64,000 nucleotides of DNA, taken from Mobula hypostoma. Its lineage: Eukaryota. This document shows, piece after piece, positions 9,618 to 27,600 of the stretch. The position numbers and the translations under genes are program-made. Where the stretch lies: positions 52,392,001 through 52,456,000 of the forward strand of contig NC_086108.1 of assembly GCF_963921235.1 (NCBI RefSeq). The letters run 5' to 3'. Below the pieces are notes generated by a model. The model did no database searches, was not told where the DNA came from, and was given only the letters and a program-made list of their open reading frames with translations. The first letter of the stretch is position 1. Each line of letters starts with the position of its first letter.

Positions 9618-12600
9618 GTAAGAATGAGAATGGCTGGTTGTAAGTCGTTGTTGCTTTTGGTAAGGGTGATGCATTAATATTTGTATGAAAACTTCATTAA
9701 TTATAATGTAGAATGGTGTTGACTAATCATGTAGGTCAGAATGTAGAATCAATTTGTGTGAAGCCAAGTAAAAGCAACTGACAAAAACAACTAGAAGTAG
9801 TTTATAGGCTCCCTAATAGCAGTTGTAACATTGGAAAGCATGATCAAGCAACTTCTACAAAAATAGAACATAGAACAGTACAGCACAGGAATGTGCCTTT
9901 TGTCCCACAATGTTGTGCTGAACCAATTAAATTAGTAAACACATAGCCAACTAAACTAATCTCTTCTGTCTACACAATGTCCATATCCTTCCATTTCCCT
10001 CATATTTATCTAAATGTCTCTTAAAACATCACTTTACACCCATGACTGTGTGGCTAAGTACAACTCCAAACACGATATACAAGTTTGCTGATGACACCGC
10101 TGTTGTGGGCCGTATCAGAGGTGGTGATGAGTCAGCGTACAGGTGGGAGACTAAGTTTGGCTGAGTGGCTGAGAAGCACGGAAGAACTGAGGGGGAAATT
10201 TGATAGAGGTATACAAAATTATGAGGATTTAGTTCGGGTAAATGCAAGCAAGGTCTCACTCAATGTCAATAAGACCAAGGAACTGATTGTAGACTTAAGG
10301 AAGGGAAACCAGAGGTCAGTGAGCTAGTACTCATTGGAGTATTGGGGTGGAGAGAGTCAGTAATTTTAAATTCATGGGTGTCACTATCCCAGAGGACCTA
10401 TCCTGGACTCATCACGTAAATATAATTGTAAAGAAAGCACAACAGCACCTCTACTTCCTCAGGAGTCTGCGGAGATTCAGCATGTCATCAAAAACCTTGA
10501 ACGAAGTGGGTAACTACACTCATTCTATTTCTGGTGTTCCCACAACTGACGGTCTCACTTTAAGGACTTTTTATTTTGCTATTTCATGCTGTCATTATGT
10601 ATTGCTATTTATTTATATTTGCATTTGCACAGCTTGTTGTTCATTGATCCTGTTTACAGTTACTGTTCTAGCTAGGTTTAACCACAGGAAGGAGAATCTC
10701 AGGGTTGTAGGTACTCTGATAATGAATTTTACTTTGAACTTTAGAAGTCCCTAATGTATCTGCCTTTATCAATACCCTGGGCAGTGCATTCTAGACATGC
10801 ACCATTCTCTGTGTTAAAAATGCTTGCCCCCCACTACTTCTTTGAACTTGCCCCATCTCACCTTAAATGCATGCCCTCAGGTATTAGACATTGCAACCCT
10901 GGGAAAAAGATACTGTTCCTCTTCTCTATCTCTTGCTCTCATAACCTTATAAACCTCCAGCAGATCTCCCTTCAGCCTCTGTCACTCCGGTGAAGACAAC
11001 CCAAGATTGTCCAACCTCTTTATAGCACATGTCCTCTAATCCAGGCAGCATCGTGGTAAACCTCTTCTTTACCCACTCCAAAGTTATCAATGATCATGGT
11101 GGAGTTTGCTTGTAATCATAACAGTCAACTGGACATATTGTCTCCACTTGAATTCCAGTGGTTCACCACCTAAGTAACTCTGAAGGCCTTGGCTTGCGTT
11201 GTACACTCAGTGGCCACTTTATCAGGTACTCATGCTCATTCATGCAACTGTCTAATCAGCCGATCATGTGGCAGCAACTCAGTGCATAGGAGCATGCAGA
11301 CATGGTCAAGAGGTTCAGTTGTTGCTCAGACCAAACATCAGAATGGGGAAGAAAAGTGATCAAAGTGATTTTCAGATGGCCTTTGACAAGGTGCCACACA
11401 TAAGGCTGCTTAGCAAGCTATGAGCCCATGGTATTACAGTTAAGATTCTAGCATGAATACAACAGTGGCTAATTGACAGGAGAGAAAGAGTGGAAATAAC
11501 CTTTTCTGGTTGGCTGCCGGTGACTAGTGGTGTTCCACAGCGGTCTGCGTTTATGTTATATGTTAATGATTTGGATGATGGAATTGATGGCTTTGTAACA
11601 AAGTTTGCAGGTGATATGAAGATAGTTGCAGGAGCAGATAGTGTTCAGGAAATAGAGAGGCTACAGAAGGACCTAGTCAGATGAGGAGAATGGGCAAAGA
11701 AATGGTAGATGGAATACAGTGTTGGGAAGTGTACAGTCATGCACTTTGAAGAAATGAAAGGGTTGACTATTTTTTAACTGGCGAGAAAATGCAAAATTCT
11801 GAAGTACAAAGAGATTTGGGGAGTCCATGTCCATGATTCCCTAAAGGTTAGTTTTCAGGTTGAGTCTGTGATGAGGAAGGCAAATGCAATGTTAGCATTC
11901 ATTTCAAAAAGACTAGAATATTAAAGTGTTAGACTTTATAAGGCATTGGTGAAGCCTCACTTGAAGTATTATGAGCAGTTTTGGGCCCCTTATCTTAGAA
12001 AGGATGTGCTGAAACTGGAGAGGGTTCAAAGAAGGTTCACAAAAATGATTCCAGGATTAAATGGCTTGTCATATGAAGACCATTTGATGGCTCTGGGCCT
12101 GTATTCACTGGAATTCCGAAGAATGAGGGGTGACCTCATTGAAACCTACCAAATGGTGAAAGGCACTGATGTGGAGAGGATGTTTCTGATGTTGGGAGCG
12201 TCTAAGACCAGAGGACACAGCCACAGAATAGAAGGGCGTCTTTTCAGAACAGAGGTGAGGAGGAATTTGTTTATCCAGAGGGTAGTGAATCTGTTAAATT
12301 TGTTGCCACAGGCAGCTGTGGAGGCCAAGTCTTTATGTATATTTAAGGCAGAAATTGATAGATTCTTGATTGGTCATGGCATGAAGGGATATGGGGGGAA
12401 GGCAGGAGATTGGAGCTGAGAGGGAAAATTGGATCAGCCATGATGAAATGACCGAGCAGACTCAATGGAACAAATGGTCTAATTCTGCTCTTATATCTTA
12501 TTGTCTTACAGGAGGTAACTAATAAAGTGGCCACTGGGTGTATATGATGTAATTTTCATTCTTCCTAGTGACAGACATATTGACAGTAATTTGTTTATTA

Positions 12601-15600
12601 CAGCAAACTTACTGCTGCAGTTTGTGCTTCTAGATTGGTTATTCTCGTCATCCCACTGGCTAGTACGTAGATACTGGTCAATATTCTACTTTCTAAGATT
12701 TTTTTCTGTGTACGCTACCCCATGATTTTTCTATGCTCTTTACTCTTTGTTAAATGAGTGCTACTTTCATGGCTTTTTTTTTTTAGCTAACTGCAGCCCT
12801 GTACAATTTGCCCTTTCTTGTCAATTGAAGCACCAGGGATCCAGAAATACTTATAAAATGTGAACCTAGTGCTCCACATTTTTGTTTTGCTTATTTTGAT
12901 GTTTAGTTGCTGCTTCTAAGATTTTTGATTTTGAGAGCTTTATTAATGCCTGATGTGTAAATTTCTTCATTGCCACATTACCCATCCTGCTTCATTTTGA
13001 ATTTGCTCAAAAACAGCAATTTGTGAATTGGAGGGGTGTATAGAAGTATGAATGTCAGACTGATAAATGCAACTTTTGTCATTTATTGTATGCACAGTAA
13101 CTAAAAGCTTCTGCAGCGATCTTTGCAACAAACATTTCTGTCAATAGTTAAAATGTCATGCAAACGCTTTGTTATTTCGTATCACAGGGGAAACTGAGCC
13201 ACAATAATATATGTATTTCATCTGTGTTTGTGAGTGAGGATGGTCACTGGAAGCTGGGAGGAATGGAGACAATGTGTCATTTCTCTCAAGCATCTCCTGA
13301 GGTGAGTTTTTCTTGGTCCTAATTTCTGCTTTGTAAAATTTCCATTTGTCTTATGCAAAATCTTTGTCTAGTGGAATGAATTCTAATTTGCACAGTTCTT
13401 CTAAGTTCTTATTGATTTTGAGATTAAAAGAACATCTGTTTTCTTTTGTAATTCCTGATTTTTGTGATTAAAAGAAAATTGTTTTCTCTTGTAGTTCCTG
13501 TCCAGTATCAAGTCATTGAGAGATTTGAGTGGAATAGCTCCAGAGGAACAGGTGTGTCCACAGTATGGAATAAAATTATGATGGGTTTAAAAACAGAAAA
13601 TGCTGGGAACACTCCGCAGGATAGACATCATCAGTAAAAAGGGAAACATCTTGTGTTTCAGATTGAAGAGTGCTTCCTGCATTTCTTGTTTGGGATTTGT
13701 TTTCACAGATATTACAATACTTTTCTTTAAAGTTCCAGTTTCAGTTTAAATTCGGGAGCTGTTCTACTTAGATTCAAGGTATAATTACGATCAGTAGCTA
13801 GGATGCTGGATACTTGTTTAGTAACTTAATCAATATTTTGCTGGATTCAGTAAGTTAAAAACAAAACACCAGCAGAAAATTTTGAATGTTGGGAAGTTGG
13901 GCAGCTTTGATATAGGAAACACTAATTAACTTTTCAGCTTGGGACCTAGTTTGTCATCGTTCAAATTGGTTTTCTGCAACACAGTGTTGCAAATGTTTGT
14001 TATCTAAGATTCCTCAGGATTAGTTCCTTGGGGTTTCACAAAAGGCAAGTGGTGTATTTATTCCGTATTGCTATATGAAGTACTTAAATGATGTTGGTCT
14101 GACTTCTTGTCATTTCTGGCAATAGAGACAATATATGAAGAAGCCCTAGAATAAGGCCTGTTGCAAGCTGACCTTATCGAATTTAGTCCTCAGGTTTTCA
14201 GATTCTTCCTGAATCGCATGGACATGCCCGAGATGCTTACTCATTTGGGATGATGGTTGCAAAACTCCTACCTTTGCTTAATGATATGGGTAAGGTTAAT
14301 ATTTCAGTGACCAATGTTTGTGGTTACTGTCAACTACCTGTCAGGGAAGCACATGTTAACTGATCAGTACAAGCATTTGATTTATTTTTTGTATATCATT
14401 TGTTTTTTTTTCTAAATGTCTGTGTACTAGCGTACTAGAGCTAAAGTTCAGTAGACTGTACAGAATATTCAGGACAGTGGCTGTGATTTAACAAAAAGTC
14501 TCTAATACCAGTGTAGTGCCATTCAGGAGATGGTTTCAGATCAACTTACTAGAAACCATAGGTCAGGAAGTTAAATATTAAATGTGGTTAACTTGCAGTG
14601 AAATCAAAAGGCTTCCTTGATAAAGAAATGGTAAACTGATTTAGAGAAGGCATCCCAAAGGACATTAACTTGTCACCCAGATTTTAAAAAACCTTCAGCT
14701 AGGATTGGGATGTCTGGCTGAAGAAAATCATTTCTACACAGGGGTTTCTTGCTTAGCATTCAGGATGCATTGCTAGGAGCCATGCATAACCGCGCACAGC
14801 CAAAGTGAATATCTTATTTTATGCTGTGATATTTACCTGTAAATGTTATGACTCCAGCAGCAGTAGTGTTATAAAAAAAATGTGTTCTGCAGAGTATTGT
14901 TAAATGGGGATCCAGTGTATCAGGTGAATTATGACTTGTGAAAGATTAAAGAATTTGAGAATTTGTCTCCCTATTGGTTGAAAAGGAAAGGAATGTTTTA
15001 CTCTAAAGAGAGTGATGTGAACATGGCAAGACATTAGCTTTTTCAAGGGGATGATACTGAAATAATAAACTGGCACTTGTACTGGAACATTAATGATTTA
15101 TAATTTAACAGAAAATTCTTGATCAATTGTGCAAGGAACATTAAAGATTTGGATGAAGAATTGCTTCATTATTTTCTCTGGAAAATTTCACAGTTTCTGT
15201 ATGTCTGAACCAAAATGAAGTACTTTTGAAATGTATTTAGTATTGCAAAGTTAGATGTGTTACCACTAATGTAAGTTCAAGAAAGGGATGATATGAGTAT
15301 GTTTAGTCTAATGTTATAGAATAAATATTAAGTAACATTAATAGCATTGCGTGCTGACGTTACAGAATTGGATGGCGCGTGATTATAAATAGGTCATGTA
15401 GTATTGAAATGGTTTTTCCACCAAAAATCCAAAGATGTTAGTGCTATTTTAAATCAAGTTATTGAGTAGCATATACTTGACCTGAAAATGTAAAAACTGA
15501 GTTGCGAATTGGGTACTGTTGTTCTTTAGTACAAAACATCCCTTTATGATAACTCACTAATATCTCTGCAGTACAGGACATTACTGATTACTGAATTCTG

Positions 15601-18600
15601 ATGGTTCAGGGTTAATTTGTTTATTCTCAAGTTGCAGAACATTTGCTAGCAAAATTCCAGGAAACTTTAAATGCCACTCTTCTTAACCCAGACCCAATGC
15701 AACGGCTGTGTTTGCGTAGTTTATTGTCTCATGCATTTTTCAGGTAAGTATTTTTGCACAGCACTCCTTTTAATTTATTTGTTAATTAAAGCAGAAAATA
15801 ATTAGAAAATAAGTTAACTTCATGTACTATTTAAAATCGAAGTGGAAAGTTGATTCATAAATATATGAGTTGTCTACTGTGCTTGTCCAGTAGATTAGTC
15901 AGGATTACTGCCATACATTTTGCAACGGCGGCGGGGGGGGGGGGGAAGATAGCAGAATATATGCAAATAGTGCAAACTTTAATACAATCACAGAAATTTA
16001 TTGGTTGTACAAAGGCAAAATACGATTGTGTTCATTATAATCCAGATGGTGTATTTTAACTGCATTATCTCGAAAAGAACAAAGTAAACCATGTCAAAAT
16101 AATTCATAAAGCTTACAATGATTACACTGGATAGCAAATTTTTTCAGAAGTTTTGCTTCCTCAGAAATATTTTGTGGTTATGATACACTACTTGAAGCTG
16201 AACACAAATTTAATTTCAGACTACATGTAGGAATTTAGAGAAACAAGAAATTAACTTTTATTGAATATCTCTCTTCATGTGCCTTGCGCATTACACGCTT
16301 GGGCGATCATGGCTTTCCACATCGAACGATCCCACGCAGCACCAATGATATCTCGCACACTTAGATCTTTTAGTTCTTTCACAGTGTCCACATATTTTGT
16401 TCTTTGCCTTCCTCTTCTGCGTTTCCCAGGCATACGGCCTTGTAATGTAAGGCATTCTATTTCTCCCTTTCTGATGACATGGCCCAGGAATTTAAGTTTC
16501 CTCTCATTTAATGTTCTCATTAAAGATCTTTTTGTATGGGCAGGTTGGAGTACTGTCTCATTAGTTACCCTATCTCTATATATTTTCAGCATTCTTCTAA
16601 GAAACCATATTTCTGTTGCTTCTAAGTTTCTTTGGAGTTCTGGTGTTACAGTCCATGTTTCGGAAGCATACAGCAAAATTGACCAGATGTAACGTTTTAG
16701 TAGCCTAAGCCTTGTCATAGAAGTGTGTCTGCTGGTAAAAATGGGTTTCATTTTTTGAAAGTTAGTTTTGGCAATGGCAATTCTTTTTTTTTAATTTCTA
16801 CTTTACTTCTAGCATCTTGTGATATAAAGCTACCAAGGTAATTAAGCTGATCTTTTGTTCAGTCTCTTGGTTACCAATGTACAATTGGCAGTTGGGAGTA
16901 TCCTGCTGTTTTGATCTTACCATGCATTTGGTTTTCTTGCAGTTGATGGTTAGACCAAAATCTGTACTTGTTTGTATTACTTTGTCTAGGAGGATTTCTA
17001 GGTCTTCTGCAGCACTTGCTATTAAGGTGGTATCGTCTGCATATTTATCCCATTTAGGTCTTCTATTTCTCTGAGAATCATTTCACTATAGATATTAAAT
17101 AATTCCGGTGAGGCAACGCATTCCTGTCTAACTCCTCTTTGAATTTTAGCCCAACTGCTTATATTATCATCAATTTTTACCACTGCCGTTTGGTTCCAAT
17201 ATAAATTTTGAAGCAGTTGTTTGTCCTTTCCATCAATGTTTAGTTTAGTGAGAATTTGAAATAATTTTTCATGTTGCATTTTGTCGAATGCTTTAGTGAA
17301 ATCAATAAAACATAAAAAGACATCATTTTGATATTCAGTTGGCCTTTCTGAAAATATTCGTAGTGTGAAAATTGCGTTCCTAGTTCCTCTATCCTCAATA
17401 AACCCATATTGCAGTTTAGAAGTTTCTGGCCTTAACTTGTTTTTAATTCGACTCAGAACAACTTTCAACAAAATCTTTATTATGTGACTCATAAGACTGA
17501 TTGTTCTATAGTTTTCACAGTCAATAGTTACAGGAATCATAAGCGGGCCGAGACTCCTGAAGACTGGTGGCAGATCAACTGATGATCCCACTGGTGATAG
17601 CACAGGACAGTTAACATCTTAGTCCAAATGTATTTTCAATTCTTTAGCTCTGGACACCAGTGACTAACAGGAATAGTCTAGTTGGCAACTGGAAATAGTC
17701 CAGTGACAGCGTGGAGAGACAGCGGACAGCCAGGAAAGACTGGCACTGAGGGTGTCAGGATTGGCAATCCGGGCACCAGCTCAGAAGAGCACCAACCCCT
17801 TGAAGCTTCTAGTTTACATGGAGAAACATACCCTCAGGGTCCTCCAAGAGGGAGGGAGAATGATGGACCCAATCGGACAGATACAGTTAATTACAGGGAA
17901 CGACTACGAACAAGAGCTAGGGTAAGAGGCTCTGAGTGTCCAATGTGTTGGTGTGGGAGAGCGTTTTCCAGCATTAAAGGTTTACGAGTCCACCAAGCAA
18001 AATTGAAGTGCTATTCCACCCCAGTGGATGAAGATGAAATTACTTCACCAAGCACAGATGATGTGATCTTTTCAACCACTGAATCACAAACCACAGCGAT
18101 TCGCTCTGGAGAGAGTCATCGTACTCCAGCTCAGACGAGAGATAACCCAGGTCAGGTTTCAGACCACAGTACCCAGGTAGATTCTTCGCATGATGGCGGT
18201 GGTGAGGAGGTAGAGAAGAAGAGGAAGGTCAAGTGGCCAACAATGCAACAATGACTGATGAGAAGGCTTGGCGTGTGTTTGATGAGGATATCAGTATGAT
18301 GTTGGAGAACACTCTCGTGGGAACATCAAAGAGAAAGTTGGAAGGGATGGGTGATATGATTTACGATGTTGGAAAGTACCAGTTTGGTTTGGTTGAGTTG
18401 AAGAAAGCATAGCCTACACAGACACCAAGCAGGCGCCAGAAGGAGATTAGTAGGTTGAGGAGAGAGCTTAGATCATTGAGACAGAGGTGGAAGGTAGCAA
18501 GTGAGGGTGACAAACCAGGGCTTGCCGATCTCCGAGAGCATTTTCTGCATCACTCTGTCGTGCAGAGTCACAACGTAAAAAGAGAAAGAAGGCAAGAAAG

Positions 18601-21600
18601 TCGTTCTTTGAGAACCCTCAACAGTTCACAAAGAAATTGTTTGAACAAAGTAAGAGCGGGCAGCTTAACATCTCTCAACAAGAACTTGAGGATCACCTGG
18701 CAAGCACTTACTCTAACGAACAGCAGGAGGCTCCTTTGCTTGACATTTCAGGGCTTGTGAAGCCTACCAAGCCAGGAGTGAAGCTCGATCTGTTAGAACC
18801 CAAACTGGCAGAAGTCGAACGGTTCATCAGAAAGGCAAGGTCAGGTTCAGTGCCAGGACTTAATGGAGTGCCATATAAGGTGTTCAAGAAGTGTGAGCAG
18901 CTGAGGAAATACTTGTGGAGATTGTTAAAGGTGGTGTGGAGACAAGGTGTTGTTCCTTTGTCATGGAGTGAGGCTGAAGGAGTATACATCCCAAAGGAAG
19001 AGAATTCTACTACATTGAATCAATTCTGACCAATTTCACTCCTGAATGTAGGGGGGGAGATTATGTTTGGCATTCTAGCAGAAAGAATATCTTCATTTGT
19101 GATAGAAAATGATTTGGTAAATAGATCTGTGCAGAAGGCAGGAATACCAGGCTTCCCAGGATGCCTTGAACATACTAGTATGATAGGGCATACCATCCAG
19201 CAGTCGAAAAGGTTGAGAAGAAATCTGGCTGTAGTTTGGTTTGATCTTGCAAATGCATGTGGTCCTGTTCCCCATGCCCTGATTGAGTTTGCGATGGAAT
19301 TCCTATGGATTCCTGCTAATGTGAGGAACTTTGTTATGCAGTACTACAATGATTTCCGGATGAGGTTTTCCACTGAGCAGTTTACAACTAGGTGGCAGAG
19401 CTTGGATATTGGCATCCCAAGGGGATGTGCGATTTCACTCATCCTTTTTGTGTTAGCCATGGAGGTCGTTGTGAGGGCTGCAGAATCAGTGGGACCAGGT
19501 GTCGGAGGGGAGTTACCACCAATACGAGTATTCATGGACGATCTCACCCTTTTGGGTCCTAGCAAGAAGGTAGTAGAAAGTGTACTATCTAGACTCGAGG
19601 AGGTAATGGACTGGGGAAGAATGAAGTTCAAGACCAAGAAGTCAAGGAGCCTTATTCTTAGGAGAGGAAAGTGGTTGACTTTCATTTCACCTTTTGTGGA
19701 GAGGAGATTCCATCCATTCAGGACCAACCAGTTAAGAGCCTCGGGCGATGGTACACAGAGGAGCTGAGAGACACCAAGAGGGTTCAAGAGACAGGAGAAC
19801 AGTTCAGCAGAGGTCTGATGTCTGTTGACAAGTGTGGCTTGCCTAGCAAGTTGAAGTTGTGGTGCTTGCAGTACGGACTGATGCCACAGATAATGTGGCC
19901 ACTAACTGTCTATGAAGTGGCAATGTCCCATGTTGAGGCAATGGAACGGAAGATCAACAAGTATGTGAAGAAGTGGCTTGGAGTACTGAGCAGTCTCACC
20001 AATGTTGCAATCCACAGTAGCCAGACAAAGCTTACCATCCCAGTGCAATCCCTTGTTGAAGAGGTCAAGGTAGCCAAGGTAAGATCATTCTTGATGCTTC
20101 GAGACTCAAAAGACCCTGTCATCAAGAACACCCAGCCAGATGTGAGATCAGGCGGTAAGTGGTCAGCCCATGTAGCAGTTGATGAGGCAGAGTCTAGACT
20201 GAAGCACAAGGAGACGGTTGGGGCTACCCAGCTAGGCCGCCAGGGACTTGGATGGACAACCCACAAGTGGTGGTCATCAGTTGAGCAGAAAGTACTGCAG
20301 CACAACTTATCTCATGCCCCATGCTGCACAGAACATCACATATCATTTGTGAAAGAAGGCTCCAAGTCAAGGGTGTACAGCGCAAGCCCACGATCAAGCA
20401 TACTTTCTTCAGCCAATGATTGGTGTGTCAAGGCTGACCTGGGTAGCAAAGGCAGTTTCCCGGAGCAAATAGCTTTCACCACATTGTGCCCAGATATAAT
20501 CGTATGGTCTGACACCAGTAGAGAAGTGGTTATTGGTGAACTCACAGTCCCTGGGAAGACAACATCGATGAAGCCCATGAGCGCAAGTTAACCAAGTATG
20601 CAGAATTAAGATCAGAGTGCAGAGACAGAGGGTGGAAGGTCTCATGCTATCCATTCAAAGTAGGTTGCCACGGATTTATTGCGTTCACTTTCCAGAAGTG
20701 GCTGCGTGACCTTGACTTCACTAGAAGAGAGATCAAGTCAACAAGCAGGGCTGTAGCTGAGGCAGCAGAGACAGGATCATCATGGGTGTGGACCAAGTAT
20801 GTCCAGAGGGGCAGATAGTCAGACAGTGTATCCATCTTTTGCGAACCCTTCAGTAGTTGCATACACACCTGAAGAGTAGACTATCTGTTGGATGGAAGTG
20901 ACCAATAACTCTGATAAAGGCAGATGCCAAGTTTTTAAGCTCACCAGTGGGAGGTGGTGCTTTAGCACTGCTGGCCCACCACCTCGAGGGAGTCTTGATC
21001 ATAAGCGGGCCGAAACTCCTGAAGACAGGTGGCAGATCAACTGATGATACCACTGGTGATAGCACAGGACAGTTAACAACTTAGTCCAAGTGTATTTTCA
21101 ATTCTGCTGTTGACCTCCAGAGTACATTATCAGAGAACTATACTTAGTGAATTTGCCACTGTCGGTCCATCTAATTTCTGACAGGCCTAAGATATCAACT
21201 TCCAACCTTTTCATTTCATTTAATGTGTTGTCCAACTTTCCTTTCTGGTAAAGTGTACGTATGTTCTATGTTGCTACCCTTAGCCTTTCATTATTGCTTA
21301 CAGTCTCTGGATGATGGTCTGATGTCACCTGCAGCACATGACTACTCCTGAGCGAGGTGTTGTTCTGTTGATTAGAATCAACCCCATTCATGCTGTTGTC
21401 TGGCTTCCTTCTTTTGTTTCTTTCCATGACTGACTAGGCGTGCTCATCTAACTAGAGCATTTGACCTCTACTGGTGTTGCCAATTGGGAATCATAACCTA
21501 GATGTCGCCCAGCCTTTGCTGTTGCTGTACAAAGACAATCCTCCACCAAAGCCTGGAATCCATCTCCCTGCTGCTGGAGACTTCAGTGATTTTAGGTGAC

Positions 21601-24600
21601 ATCACCACCATTGGTCTGGTTATTTTTCTGGCACCAAACACTTGCCATAGGCAGAGCCCCTTCAGCGAGACAGCGTGCACCCAGACCTAAGAACTACGTG
21701 AAGGTGGAGTTGTCTTGGGTGGTAGAAGCTATATAATCGTTATTGGCATTTCCTGATATTTAGTCAGGATCCAACCACCCCATACACCCTTTATTGAATA
21801 TAATGTGTTTAATTGCATAATGATGCTGACACTTTGCAATATTTCAACCAAGCTAAAAATGTTTTGTTGATAATTTTCATTTGTACTCAGTGTCTGAGAG
21901 GACTTGCTTAAGTGACCAACAATAATCAGCCAGCATTGATGGATTCCATTTGCCCTGAGACTGATTCTCCTTGGCTGCAGTGTCCTGCTGAAACCTTTCA
22001 CCATGCTCGTCACTGATAGCGCCAAGATTTGCAGGGAAGAAGTCTAAATGAGAAAGCAGAAATTAATTTTTAGTGACATGTTGCCACTTCATGGTTTTGT
22101 ATGCTTGAAGCATGTTGTCAACCAGCTGCACGTAGTTTGGTGCTCTATAGTTGCCAAGAAAATTTTCGGCAATATCCTTGAAAGCCTTCCATGCGAATTT
22201 CTCCAATCCCACTGGAAGTTCTCCGAGTTGACTGCCATTGATGACCAGTTTGATTTGTGGACCAGCAAGAATGTCTTCTTTAATTTTGGCATCAGTTATT
22301 CTGGGAAACAACTGTCTCAAATATTGATATTCTTCACAGAAATTATGTGCCTGGTGACAGCTGATTCCATCCTTGCACTCTTGAACCCAGTAATTCTGCT
22401 TTTGCCTTTGACAAACCCAAGTCTCTGACCAGGTCATTTAACTCAGATTCAGTTATCAGATGAGGCTCACTCGACATAAAGGGTTCAAAATCTGTATCAG
22501 TATCAGTGTTGTTTTCCATTCCTGGTTCGTGCATCATGGCACCGTCATCTGCCTCCTCTAGACTCCATATCTCTGATGGCTTTTGTACTGGAAGACTGTT
22601 GTCATGTGGCACAGATCTCATGACTGAAGCGAGATTGGGGGTTGTCAATGGATTTGTTGTATTTAGCAGAGAAGCCGGACACACTGGTCGGACAGAAGTA
22701 TGCTGTTGCATGATCCTTCTGCTCTCTCCATGTCATCAGGACAACAATCAGCATCGAACAGAGATCCGAGTTCCTCTGTGCCAAGCTCTAAGATTGACCA
22801 TACATGTTGCACAACAAGTATGAGGAGCCCAAGCTTTGTCTTGGTTGCCACTTTTACACCCAAAGTTAAGCTCATAGGCTTAGTAAGAGGAGTCATGCTC
22901 CGTCTTAGAGATTTAAATGCATACATGACACAAATATAACAGAAGGCATTGCAGCTGTTGAAACATTGGCGAGACATTTTGCTATTGCAAGTACTCCTGA
23001 AAATACTTATAAGTATACACAGTGTGCTGTGCGCGTAGAGCAAGTGCATCAACGTGATTGCAAGCCGATATATATGTAAAGGCAATGCATAGAATGGTGT
23101 GTGTGTTATACTTTTATAGCCTTTCTAAAACCTGTCCTGCCACACAGCATCCACTCTGCCTAAGTCTGTCCAGGCATGCCTGGACAAGATAGAAAACTTT
23201 TCAGCTTACATTGTGGGCAACGGTTTAATTGACATGAATTATAAATTAAAATAACAAATATAGGTGATTTCAAATAAATAATGCATGATAGTGAAATTTC
23301 AAAATCCATAAGATAGATCCAAAACTATTCAGGAAGCAAAATCTTTGTTGTCCAGTGTTATTGAAGTCCATACATAGTAGCTTCATGGAAATACAATTTT
23401 CATTTGTTCAGCATCACAAATATATTATTGATCTACTGTCAATATTCAGATATGTCACTGGAGGAAACTTAATGTGTAATGGGAATATGCATGCTGCTCA
23501 TGACTAAATGAATGACATTTTGATTTCTATCACTTTGAAGTAATACTGTACTTGATTGTTGCTCCCAGTAGATTGGAAAATTTCCTATTCATATTAAGAC
23601 AAATCTTTGTAATGATTATGATCTGAGGTGTGACTGAATATATCCAAAATACACTTTCGAATCAGTCCACCAACATGGACCAATTAATAAAATTAGATTA
23701 TTATTGCAAATGAATCCACCACTAATTTGACTTTGTAAAATGAGGAGAAAGTTTGTTTTCAGTACCATTATATTTGATAAGATGTATTTAATGTGATGCC
23801 ATCTTTTAAAATTGGACTCAGTTAATTGCACTTAATATAGCTTAAAGTGACAATGCAGATGGAAAAAAAAGTTTCTTCTTTCTTCTATGCTACCAATTAA
23901 AAATTTGGATATTTAATACTTAGTATTTGTGATTCTATTATTTGGCTAATGTTGTCCCTCATATATTCAGCAGGAATGAATTCTTGGAAATTGTAAATTT
24001 CTTACAAAGTTTGACACTAAAAACTGAAGAAGAAAAGAATGAGTTTTTCAAGTAGGTATTCCATTAATGTCATGAATACTGTTAGAAAATGGAATTGAAC
24101 TTAAAAATAATAACTACAGTGGATTCCGGTTAATTGGGCCATTGGTTAATTGAGACTGCTGCTTATTTGGGGCAACTTGTAAAGAGCAAAAACTAATTGA
24201 GAAAATAGCTGGGGTTCCCTTCATTTATTTGGAATATTGTGGAAGAAGATGGCACCTGCGAGCAACACAACCAAGGGCAACATCCTTCAGATGGTTCACG
24301 AAAATAATTTCACTTCTTTTACATCTTTTTCTTTCAAATGTTTTTCTGCGACTGTTGGAGCCTGGAGCCCACATTTTGGTGGTGTTTTCTCAGGCCAATT
24401 GAGTGATCTGGCACTTTGCTGTCTCCGAGGGGATTCGGTGAGGTTTCAGGCAAACCGTGCAGCTTCGAGTTCAAGAAGTCTGGAGACTGGGTGCGAGCTG
24501 ATGATCGATTACATTTCTTACTGATTTCGCTGATTAAAGCATTGAGGAAGATTGAAATCTTCGAGGTGAGCTGGTGTTCAGCGCCATCTGTCAGCCTCTT

Positions 24601-27600
24601 GCTCACTACTGCCAGAAGACGATGCTGTAGTCTTGGGCGAGGTTTACTCAATGCAGTTTGTGGATTGGATTCTGTAGTTCACATTATGATGTGTTTCTGT
24701 TTGCTGCTATTTTGTTGCCATTTTGTGCGATTTTGATAGGGCAGCCTGCAGATAGCGAACGACACAGATTGAACTGAATGTGCCTTGGACTTTCTAGGTT
24801 GGTGTTTTATATTGTGTGTTTTTCGCTCATTTTTTATTTCTTGCCTATTGTGCGATTTGGGGTTTTTTGCGCTTGGGGAGATGGTTTGTTGACTGTCTTT
24901 GAATGGATTCCATGGTTTTCTTTGTTTTTGGCTGTCTGTGGGAAGACGAATTTCAGGGCTGTATACTGCATTCATACTTTGATAATAAATGTACTTTGAA
25001 TCTTCAATTTTTGACACTAATCCAGTTAATTAGGACAGTAGACTGTTGCCAAACAGTTTCTAACTTGTGTCATGAAAAGATTTAACAATAGCTGAAAAAA
25101 TTACCGTAGGTGCTTGCATCGATTTTGTTCATTTACAGTCAATCAAAAGAACATAGTGTACATTGAATGAATTTCACTGTTGATAACTATGATGAACACA
25201 TTTTTATAGTACTGTAGTAGTATTGGTGTTGTAATTTCTGAATTTCATTTAAGCAATGAATTGGGCCAAAATGTACTGGTCCCGCTGTGTCCTAGTTAAC
25301 CAGAATCCACTGTATTTCTCATTTCTGTTCTTGCTTAGCAGTTCTGTTAGACAACAGGCAGGAGTGGGAATCTTGATTTAACGAAAAAGTCTGAAATTAA
25401 TTGCACTATTCAAACAGTGGCTCTAACCCTTCACTGACCAAAGTGCAAACCAAAGCATTCATGATCTGAACACAACTGCCAGAGCATTTAGAACATAGAA
25501 CATAGAATAGTACAGCACAGTACAGGCCCTTCGTCCCACAATGTTGTGCCGACCCTTAAACCCTGCCTCCCATATAACCCCCTATCATAAATTCCTCCAT
25601 ATACCTGTCTAGTAGTCTCTTAAATTTCATTAATGTATCTGCCTCCTCCACTGACTCAGGCAGTGCATTCCATGCACCAATCACTCTCTTGAGTAAAAAA
25701 CCTTCCTCTAATATCTCCCTTGAACTTTCCAACCCTTACCTTAAAGCCATGTCCTCTTGTATTGAGCAGTGGTGCCCTGGGGAAGAGGCGCTGGCTGTCC
25801 ACTCTATCTATTCCTCGTAATATCTTGTATACCTCTATCATGTCTCCTCTCATCCTCCTCCTCTCCAAAGAGTAAAGCCCTAGCTCCCTTTATCTCTGAT
25901 CATAATGCATACTCTCTAAACCAGGTGGCATCCTGGTAAATCTCCTCTGTACCCTTTCCAATGCTTCCACATCCTTCCTATAGTGAGGCGACCAGAACTG
26001 GGCAGAGTGCTCCAAGTGTGGCCTAACCAGAGTTTTATAGAGCTCTTAAACTCTATCCCTCGACTTATGAAAGCTAACACCTTATAAGCATTTGTAAACT
26101 TACCAACCCACCCTTCTACCCCCACATCCAGGTCGTTAATAAAAATCACGAAAAGTAGAGGTCCCAGAATCGATCCTTGTGGGACACCACTAGTCACAAC
26201 CCTCCAATCTGAATGTACTCCCTCCACCATGACCCTCTGCTTTCTGCAGGCAAGCCAATCCTGAATCCACCTGGCCAAACTTCCCTGGATCCCATGCCTT
26301 CTGACTTTCTGAATAAGCCTACTGTGTGGAACCTTGTCAAATGCCTTACTAAAATCCATGTAGGTCACATCCACTGCACTACCCTCATCTATATGCCTGG
26401 TCACCTCCTCAAAGAATTCTATCAGGCTTGTTAGACATGATCTGCCCTTTACAAAGCCATGCTGACTGTCCCTGATCAGACCATGATTCTCTAAATGTCC
26501 ATAGATCCTATCTCTAAGAATCTTTTCCAATAGCTTTCCCACCACAGATGTAAGGCTCACTGGTCTGTAATTACCCGGACTATCCCTACTACCTTTTTTG
26601 AACAAGGGGACAACATTCGCCTCCCTCCAATCCTCTGGTACCATTCCCGTGGACAACGAGGACATCAAGATCCTAGCCAGAGGCTCAGCAATCTCTTCCC
26701 TTGCCTCGTGGAGCAGCCTGGGGCATATTCCGTCAGGCCCCAGGGAGTTATCCTTCCTAATGTATTTTAACAACTCCAACACCTCCTCTCCCTTAATATC
26801 AACATGCTCCAGAACATCAACCTCACTCATATTGTCCTCACCGTCATCAAGTTCCCTCTCATTGGTGAATACCAAAGAGGAGTATTCGTTGAGGACCTCG
26901 ATCACTTCCACAGCCTCCAGGCAGATCTTCCCACCTTTATCTCTAATTGGTCCTACCTTCACTCCTGTCATTCTTTTGTTCTTCACATAATTGAAGAATG
27001 CCTTGGGGTTTTCCTTTACCCTACTTGACAAGGCCTTCTCATGCCCCCTTTTTGCTCTCCTCAGCCCCTTCTTAGGCTCCTTTCTTGCTTCCCTATATTC
27101 TTCAATAGACCCATTTGATCCTTGCTTCCTAAACCTAAACCTCATGTATGCTACTGCCTTCCACCTGACTAGATTTTCCACTTCACTTGTCACCCATGGT
27201 TCCTTCACCCTACCATTCTTTATCTTCCTCACCGGGACAAATTTATCCCTAACATCCTGCGAGAGATCTCTAAACATCAACCACATGTCCATAGTACATT
27301 TCCCTGCCGAAACATCATCCCAATTCACACCCACAAGTTCTAGCCTTATAGCCTCATAATTTGCCCTTCTCCAATTAAAAATGTTCCTGTCCTCTCTGAT
27401 TCTATCCTTTTCCATAATAATGCTAAAGGCCAGGGAATGGTGGTCACTGTCCCCCAGATGCTCACCCACTGAGAGATCTGTGACCTGACCTGGTTCGTTA
27501 CGGAGGCATTAGCGGAGGCGTTGTGGAGGCATTAGCGATGATCTTTCAAAAGTTGATAGATTCTGGCATGGTTCCGGAAGACTGGAAGATTGCAAATGTC

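Follow-up and report, generated by a model that had tools for sequence, protein, structure and literature searches.

R2 retrotransposons carry a hepatitis delta virus (HDV)-like ribozyme at their 5' end, which frees the element RNA from its ribosomal RNA co-transcript; they insert site-specifically and have no terminal repeat. Hammerhead variants were reportedly described by Weinberg et al. in 2015. In Penelope-like elements (PLEs), partial-tandem insertions give rise to pseudo-long terminal repeats (pseudo-LTRs) bearing hammerheads, and internal initiation by the reverse transcriptase (RT) has been proposed (PMC11167929, Frangieh et al. 2024; PMC6765202; here and below, papers are cited for selected passages). 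A natural, non-circular permutation of the hammerhead with the block order S-G-C has been validated, with examples mostly from IMG/M contigs (Eckert et al. 2023, PMC10085705), and the HERO clade of retrotransposons is described as having no specific target (PMC4640811, PMC3636483). Here we analyzed a 64,000-nt stretch of the Mobula hypostoma genome (NC_086108.1, positions 52,392,001 to 52,456,000 of the forward strand; hereafter the window, numbered from its first letter). It holds an element that is very probably a decayed HERO-clade retrotransposon with a restriction-like endonuclease (RLE), an assignment made by eye from labeled RT rows, and it lies inside a host RTE-type retrotransposon. 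The element is bracketed by direct repeats, and its 3' untranslated region (3' UTR) contains a predicted hammerhead-like ribozyme of permuted order.

The predicted permuted ribozyme spans 20941..21059 on the plus strand, as do all parts of the element described below, and was the sole descriptor match in the window (128 kb over both strands). By eye, all hammerhead core nucleotides were found in 20941-21059 in the non-circularly permuted order S-G-C: block S consists of a stem III strand, GUC and a stem I strand, block G of a stem II strand, GAAA and a stem III strand, and block C of a stem I strand and CUGAUGA. Stem II is formed by 20973-20977 and 21007-21011, stem III by 20988-20992 and 21016-21020, and stem I by 20995-21000 and 21035-21040; GAAA occupies 21012-21015, CUGAUGA occupies 21041-21047, and the predicted GUC cut site comes after 20994. 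Three further helices complete the model. First, helix Z (20979-20984/21027-21032) connects stems I and II at their distal ends. Second, helix X (20941-20952/21048-21059) comprises 12 bp, and its downstream strand follows CUGAUGA. Third, hairpin Y (20953-20972) fills the interval between the 5' strands of helix X and stem II. A9 is linked to stem II neither directly nor by 1-2 nt; the two helices X and Y are inserted between A9 and G10.1, and the 5' strand of stem II, located upstream, is reached through them. We infer from this model that the 3' UTR fold would cleave after the GUH triplet at 20994.

This arrangement shares with type-SGC hammerheads the block order, a short linker between stems I and II, and an extra helix joining the distal ends of these stems (Z here, 'I' there). 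In type-SGC hammerheads, however, CUGAnGA runs directly into stem II and the block is assumed to be uninterruptible (PMC10085705), whereas block C in the window is interrupted. A canonical type-SGC stem II placed after CUGANGA was rejected, as in 20 of 21 matches the bases there made no pair with the strand on the GAAA side. Our literature search for type-SGC hammerheads returned nothing beyond Eckert et al. (PMC10085705), and a term search of the supplement of that paper gave no eukaryotic source for its examples. The Rfam 15 covariance models placed no hammerhead family in the window stretch (E ≤ 10) or in 8 relatives (E ≤ 1); Rfam and descriptor searches would miss the predicted fold because CUGAnGA is not joined directly to stem II.

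The fold was examined in relatives, comprising 76 loci from a scan of metagenome contigs, of which 31 with the end of the open reading frame (ORF) and at least 200 nt downstream made up the test set. A strict descriptor matched 12 loci and missed the window owing to a mismatch at A21049. The relaxed full descriptor, with one mismatch allowed in X and Y, gave 18 matches in 603,174 bases (both strands), none of them antisense and a single one in the window, and found 13 of the 31 relatives and none of 1240 shuffles. Reduced to the core, the descriptor matched 21 of the 31 relatives against 0/930 dinucleotide shuffles and 0/31 antisense strands, and 0/122 viral loci preselected for both core words. 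Removal of near-duplicates from 24 matches left 20 distinct ones, in which the cleavage triplet is always GUH (GUC 10, GUA 6, GUU 4) and block C reads CUGANGA in 18, UUGACAA in one and UUGAAGA in one, while stems I-III exhibit several pair types per position, up to six. The C3-G8 pair is replaced by U3-A8 in L016 and L019, a compensatory swap reported in natural active hammerheads (PMC3088659). Two helices outside the core descriptor were longer than in partner-swapped controls, both for Z (mean 6.05 bp versus 4.33 ± 0.24, 0/2000) and for X (mean 9.0 bp versus 5.97 ± 0.42, 0/2000), and the X-Y and Y-II joints are without an unpaired base in 13 of the 20 matches. When 18 hand-picked rows were aligned with plain MAFFT, pairing in stems I-III was 69.8%, compared with 60.4% when shuffled (0/500) and 25-50% when slid; the count of double-change pairs on the same alignment was unexceptional (65/500). 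Taken as sequence comparisons, these data show that the 3' UTR of the clade holds a hammerhead-like fold which is conserved and covaries.

Several further observations concern this fold. The third pair of stem I is G-C in 20/20 matches while its neighbors vary freely, and this invariance suggests a tertiary contact specific to the topology with the X/Y insert. In a divergent family the ribozyme lies ~1.6 kb downstream of the ORF end (L011:5042) and ~1.2 kb upstream of the ORF start (L012:586), positions which imply a unit of ~6 kb with long UTRs. Visual inspection of the 3' UTR on the 5' side of the ribozyme showed words resembling the A-box and B-box of tRNA genes in L028:1880-1950, L037:1620-1690 and L008:3300-3338; they are a possible RNA polymerase III promoter for the downstream unit. 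ARAGORN found 0 tRNA genes in the 3' UTRs of 44 loci, and Rfam also gave none.

In the window, 17536-17643 and 20998-21105 form a direct repeat of 108 nt with 95.4% identity, which is the sole long repeat within 15000-24000. The sequence-only reading had reported 108-bp direct repeats with five mismatches and no poly(A) tail, and this was confirmed (E 2.5e-44), there being no poly(A) at the element 3' end in the sequence. The 5' copy, 17536..17643, contains only blocks G and C and the tail, and its GAAA has decayed to GAGA. It starts 4-6 nt past the predicted cut. The 5' repeat corresponds to the 3' product of the predicted hammerhead, which carries the analogy with Penelope drawn in that reading a step further. 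The 3' copy, 20998..21105, ends at the family 3' terminus, 21104, with T21105 common to element and host.

Immediately downstream of the 5' repeat lies a conserved 5' leader (17644..17750) composed of a small hairpin followed by three hairpins with purine-rich loops of the GAA(A/T)AG, GAAAGA and GAGAGA types. RNAalifold applied to nine leaders gave 24 pairs, 8 of them with compensatory changes, and the leader is modeled as a candidate binding site for the protein of the element. A profile built from these nine leaders matched the window with E 7.7e-19 (the window itself being in the profile) and retrieved 17 distinct leaders, counting the window along with the 76 loci. The 3'-end sequence of the element precedes 16 of these 17 leaders. 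The whole ribozyme lies upstream in 11 (L004, L015, L016, L018, L022, L023, L027, L028, L030, L041 and L061) and a partial tail in five (L007, the minus strand of L017, L019, L069 and the window; the matches in L069 and L017 minus are short), and the plus-strand leader of L017 has a tail of at most 18 nt. In L018, a close relative, the tail-to-leader junction is as in the window. Terminal redundancy is a family-wide trait of variable length.

The 5' ends were read from the seven copies with outside DNA upstream. The tail at the 5' end measures ~0-18 nt in L017 plus, 31 nt in L019, ~45 nt in L069, ~70 nt in L017 minus and 108 nt in the window, and two copies start before the cut, L030 with the whole ribozyme included and L061 with the ORF end included. 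Measured against the cut, five of the seven begin at it or downstream of it, the other two upstream. The expectation that every copy would begin at one point with a pseudo-LTR of constant 108 bp was not supported, as the redundancy ranges from ≤ 18 nt to > 700 nt among these seven, and a start fixed at the cut site in all copies was rejected on account of L030, L061, L019 and L017. The 3' end, in contrast, is fixed: in the window and in L019, which is flanked by outside DNA on either side and has a terminal repeat of 31 nt, the terminus lies ~6-8 nt upstream of the first hairpin of the leader in the continuous unit. Two of the loci have a structure of their own. L017:1-7504 contains two different HERO copies placed head to head ~450 nt apart, of which the minus-strand copy begins with block C and the tail. 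L061:1021-4915, a decayed copy set between stretches of outside DNA, has the order ORF end, ribozyme, leader and ORF up to about residue 960; it is close to a circular permutation of one unit and may be an assembly chimera.

By analogy with PLEs, we consider, with moderate confidence, that the element is copied from RNA that is circular or joined head to tail, the unit being set by the ribozyme and the RT starting internally. In the template RNA, the 3' end of the element would be continuous with its own 5' leader, either in a head-to-tail transcript or in a one-unit circle. The predicted ribozyme would cut this RNA into cut-to-cut units. In the modeled topology the cut lies within the span of four helices (X, II, Z and III), so the ends would stay clamped and could be ligated or crossed by the RT. 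The protein would bind the leader hairpins and prime reverse transcription internally just upstream of them, and such priming would set the 3' end without a poly(A) tail; we infer internal initiation from the 3' termini of the window and L019 described above. The RT would then copy the full unit and enter the tail once more, coming to a halt at the ribozyme nick in the window copy (cut+4 to +6), short of the nick in L017 plus, L019, L069 and L017 minus, and beyond the cut in L030 and L061, where the site would be uncut or religated. The window copy would have been joined to the host RTE via a 2-nt overlap, with ~1.35 kb of target lost at or after insertion. A copy of the window type could not re-cut its own 5' end because its 5' repeat lacks block S, and the source elements should be copies with a whole upstream ribozyme. 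The earlier claim of a terminally redundant template stands as to the junction of 3' end and leader, found in 16 of 17 leaders; as to its source, a tandem or circular precursor is the best model, with template jumping as the alternative.

A number of points weigh against this model. The descriptors were written after viewing the window and the tails of the relatives, so that the match rate is not blind and the controls are decisive. Ten of the 31 relatives miss the core descriptor (L005, L012, L025, L038, L051, L055, L060, L061, L065 and L073), although L012 has the motif upstream of the ORF, and L061 and L065 match the motif profile (L061 being in its training set). The relatives are not independent, and many come from one tight clade. 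The folding z of the 3' UTR in the window is only -1.8 versus shuffles, and the nested minimum-energy fold differs from the model. Catalysis could be slowed or lost through the two helices inserted between A9 and G10.1, and small insertions in the hammerhead core impair activity elsewhere (PMC3088659). Several of the 11 cases with a whole ribozyme are collapsed assemblies, L015 and L016 ending in overlaps of 55 and 77 nt that are exact or nearly so; assembly loops also arise from long terminal repeats, and the junction is proven while tandem arrays are not. Only one of the seven flanked copies starts at the cut, and the proximity of the window start to the cut may be due to chance or be the product of a target deletion. 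In the PLE study, insertion of PAc in vitro did not need hammerhead cleavage (PMC11167929). Lastly, one contig of run X2 joins the 3' end at 21104 to the internal position 18339, placing the tail on a truncated body, and this joint fits template jumping or self-insertion better.

Template jumping would be the closest competitor: the ribozyme would cleave a monomeric transcript, separating the body from a short tail fragment, and the RT would jump from tail to body and onto a second tail fragment, copied up to its cut 5' end, with no need for a tandem or a circle. The R2 RT can synthesize across non-continuous templates. Jumping predicts a 5' repeat starting at or after the cut, as in five of the seven flanked copies, and accommodates the X2 joint. 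The position of the tail-to-leader junction and the few spacer bases are, however, conserved in separate copies and families, which suggests inheritance within one template, and L030 and L061 carry an uncut ribozyme upstream of the leader. We regard this explanation as unlikely, though one to be reckoned with.

Tandems may alternatively have formed at the DNA level, by preferential insertion of HERO at its own 3' ends or by expansion through recombination, the window dimer being trimmed by the 1.35-kb host deletion and the ribozyme serving only to free RNA from co-transcripts. The deletion in the host RTE at the site agrees with this scheme, as do the abundance of 3' ends (~20x the word depth of the body in run X1), the spacing of the two copies in L017, and the self-insertion described for PLEs (PMC6765202). 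It is nevertheless hard to reconcile with the partial tails before the leaders of L019, L069 and L017 minus, where no deletion is evident, and with repeats that differ by just 4.6% with mismatches on both copies; the deletion end at 4-6 nt from the cut would have to be a coincidence. We judge this scheme rather improbable.

Far more doubtful is a non-cleaving fold, that is, a former hammerhead conserved as a protein-binding or packaging structure, the repeat being the outcome of transcription in tandem combined with ordinary 5' truncation. It would fit the unusual insertion at A9/G10.1, the variability of the 5' ends and the cleavage-independent insertion of PAc (PMC11167929), but families whose RTs share only ~40-50% identity have retained every catalytic nucleotide, the GUH triplet and the C3-G8 pair with its compensatory swap. 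A one-off rearrangement or assembly artefact in the window can practically be dismissed, as the two repeat copies differ at five positions and the same junction occurs in L018 and other families.

Compared with PLEs, the window element shows the same tail-to-leader redundancy (16/17 leaders, subject to the assembly-loop caveat) and a predicted hammerhead in the repeated part. It differs in its proteins, since PLEs have a telomerase-like RT and a GIY-YIG nuclease whereas the window element has an R2-group RT and an RLE; Pfam gave no match to a GIY-YIG endonuclease. It also differs in the ribozyme, which in PLEs is mostly a minimal type I hammerhead working as a dimer (PMC6765202) and in the window is predicted to be a full, multiply pseudoknotted monomer. 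The element would, by this analogy, work like a PLE without being one. With R2 it shares an RLE-type architecture with a self-cleaving ribozyme (predicted here), and the nearest solved structures are R2 proteins; unlike in R2, the predicted ribozyme is hammerhead-like and sits at the 3' end, and a terminal repeat is present. The HERO and retroelement-ribozyme passages of PMC4640811, PMC7650587, PMC13580325, PMC3636483, PMC6155905, PMC12222951 and bioRxiv 10.64898/2026.07.22.740005 make no mention, for HERO, of a ribozyme at the 3' end, of redundant termini or of head-to-tail junctions. Our literature search, which did not cover Repbase, where an earlier mention is possible, returned no paper linking hammerheads or terminal repeats to HERO, and in the literature searched we could not find an earlier description of the topology modeled in this 3' UTR.

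If copying from head-to-tail or circular RNA is correct, an autonomous R2-group retrotransposon would carry a hammerhead at its 3' end, whereas the known R2 ribozymes are HDV-like and at the 5' end; non-circularly permuted hammerheads would gain a clear biological home in animal genomes, and the added topology would break the assumption that CUGAnGA joins stem II directly. Pseudo-LTRs and circular or tandem templates would likewise not be limited to PLEs. Whether retroelements mobilize by way of circles made by ribozymes could then be addressed directly, with an RNA of 120 nt and a protein of the R2 type. We put forward more tentatively, as a possibility that may well fail, that HERO elements across animals carry an active hammerhead of new topology, with a coaxial two-helix A9/G10.1 insert, which cuts and re-closes unit-length RNA circles while an R2-like RT primes internally and rolls round, in convergence with the lifestyle of Penelope and retrozymes.

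The host site was defined from the flanks, which are the endonuclease start and the RT start of a single RTE-type ORF on the minus strand. The left flank (16275..17537, minus strand) covers the RT and the C-terminal part (RVT_1, E 1.4e-19; APE-RT homologues), and the right flank (21105..21290, minus strand) covers the endonuclease start, identified by homology to full-length RTE homologues; this short piece alone gave no Pfam match. In 32 of 33 full-length homologues the two parts are separated by a median of 450 residues (~1.35 kb), which points to deletion of ~450 host RTE codons at the insertion site. The sequence-only reading noted that there is no target-site duplication (TSD). None was found, the longest word common to both flanks being 5 nt, 30 nt away from the junctions, but the absence carries no meaning because ~1.35 kb of the target RTE is gone. 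Contigs of runs X1 and X14 that exit the window at the junctions read on in the RTE frame past 17537 or before 21105, and since these continue into RTE coding sequence without the repeat, the repeat is not host sequence. It was proposed to be element-derived, and this is right except at its outermost bases, where AT at 17536-17537 and T21105 fit element and host alike; the element-derived part is 105-108 nt. The five mismatches are distributed over both copies, as expected for decay following one joint insertion.

Two other classes of origin for the repeat were rejected. The repeat begins with AT and ends with CT, where a long terminal repeat (LTR) retrotransposon would have TG..CA; together with the absence of any Pfam match to integrase or RNase H in the element, this speaks against an LTR retrotransposon, for which TG..CA ends, an integrase and a TSD were the features sought. 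A 108-bp TSD of a pre-existing target, which had been named as one of the findings that would overturn the reading of the repeat, was ruled out as well, given that the RTE contigs run on without the repeat and the junction recurs in other families.

The element had been called a zinc finger-RT-RLE element, and the RT and RLE parts of this description are sound while the zinc finger is weak and the ORF is broken. The N-terminal zinc finger (C-x-C...H...C, 17937..18011) is a weak Pfam zf-C2H2 match (E 0.05), and the same pattern occurs near the N-terminus of P0016. The broken single ORF (RT, thumb and RLE, 18239..20818, with its stop codon at 20816-20818) was traced by tblastn with P0001 and from the ORF list. 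The RT core of HERO type lies at 19030..19671 (RVT_1, E 1.6e-10; collinear by eye with HERO-1_BF and HEROTn). At 20490..20600 lies the motif PD...GELTVP...ERK, which we take to be the RLE core; it was recognized without a Pfam model, by the PD..E..K motif and by homology of the sequence to the C-terminus of P0001 and to intact relatives, and has a frameshift near 20548. Relative to P0001, the ORF is interrupted by an in-frame stop, changes frame several times and has lost P0001 residues 700-825, including the zinc knuckle, through an internal deletion at 20279/20280; relative to other copies, there are one-base differences at 19671 and 20548. The order of RT followed by RLE in a single ORF, broken in the window copy, is intact in P0001, P0003 and P0016, with the RLE motif judged by eye.

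Likeness to the HERO clade lies in this single ORF with an RT and a C-terminal RLE and in an RT collinear with HERO rows, whereas the window copy differs in being decayed and without a zinc knuckle. In a comparison by eye with rows from the supplement of PMC7650587, the RT of the window matches HERO-1_BF and HEROTn motif by motif, sharing QKAG.PGFPGC.EH, LPP.RA.MDD, KSRSL, PVKSLG and KLK.WCLQ, and is unlike the Utopia, R5 and R4 rows. In a quick tree of 85 unlabeled rows, the window fell together with L018 and proteins of the Branchiostoma type, and a distant group of 19 rows stood separate. P0001 is 76% identical over two thirds of a 309-residue query piece; among named homologues, identity is 69-71% for Branchiostoma proteins and 88% for a Mobula protein, the latter across 30% of the query. 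When the family profile was compared with solved structures, R2 proteins came closest (E 1e-46), with L1 proteins also among the nearest. Relatives were not found in the viral and prokaryotic collections.

The family is multicopy in two other organisms with a strong 3' bias, as judged by contig depth, which is not copy number; the excess in X1 given above refers to summed contig word depth at 20920-21042. Flanks vary among relatives, and in run X2, 39 contigs diverge from the repeat at the position matching 21098, and the sequences beyond it are mixed (agreement 0.47). At window position 21016 (or 17554; cut+22), 9, 19 and 1 contigs of X1, X2 and X14 join the repeat, with one common upstream sequence ending in a CT run; this joint may represent a short HERO tail amplified within another repeat, or a derivative resembling a short interspersed nuclear element (SINE). 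Elsewhere in the window, minus-strand ORF fragments at 22048-23124 resemble another decayed transposon gene, and 11925-12419 and 25916-27508 are presumably fragments of CR1/L2-like long interspersed nuclear elements, a name taken from their motifs.

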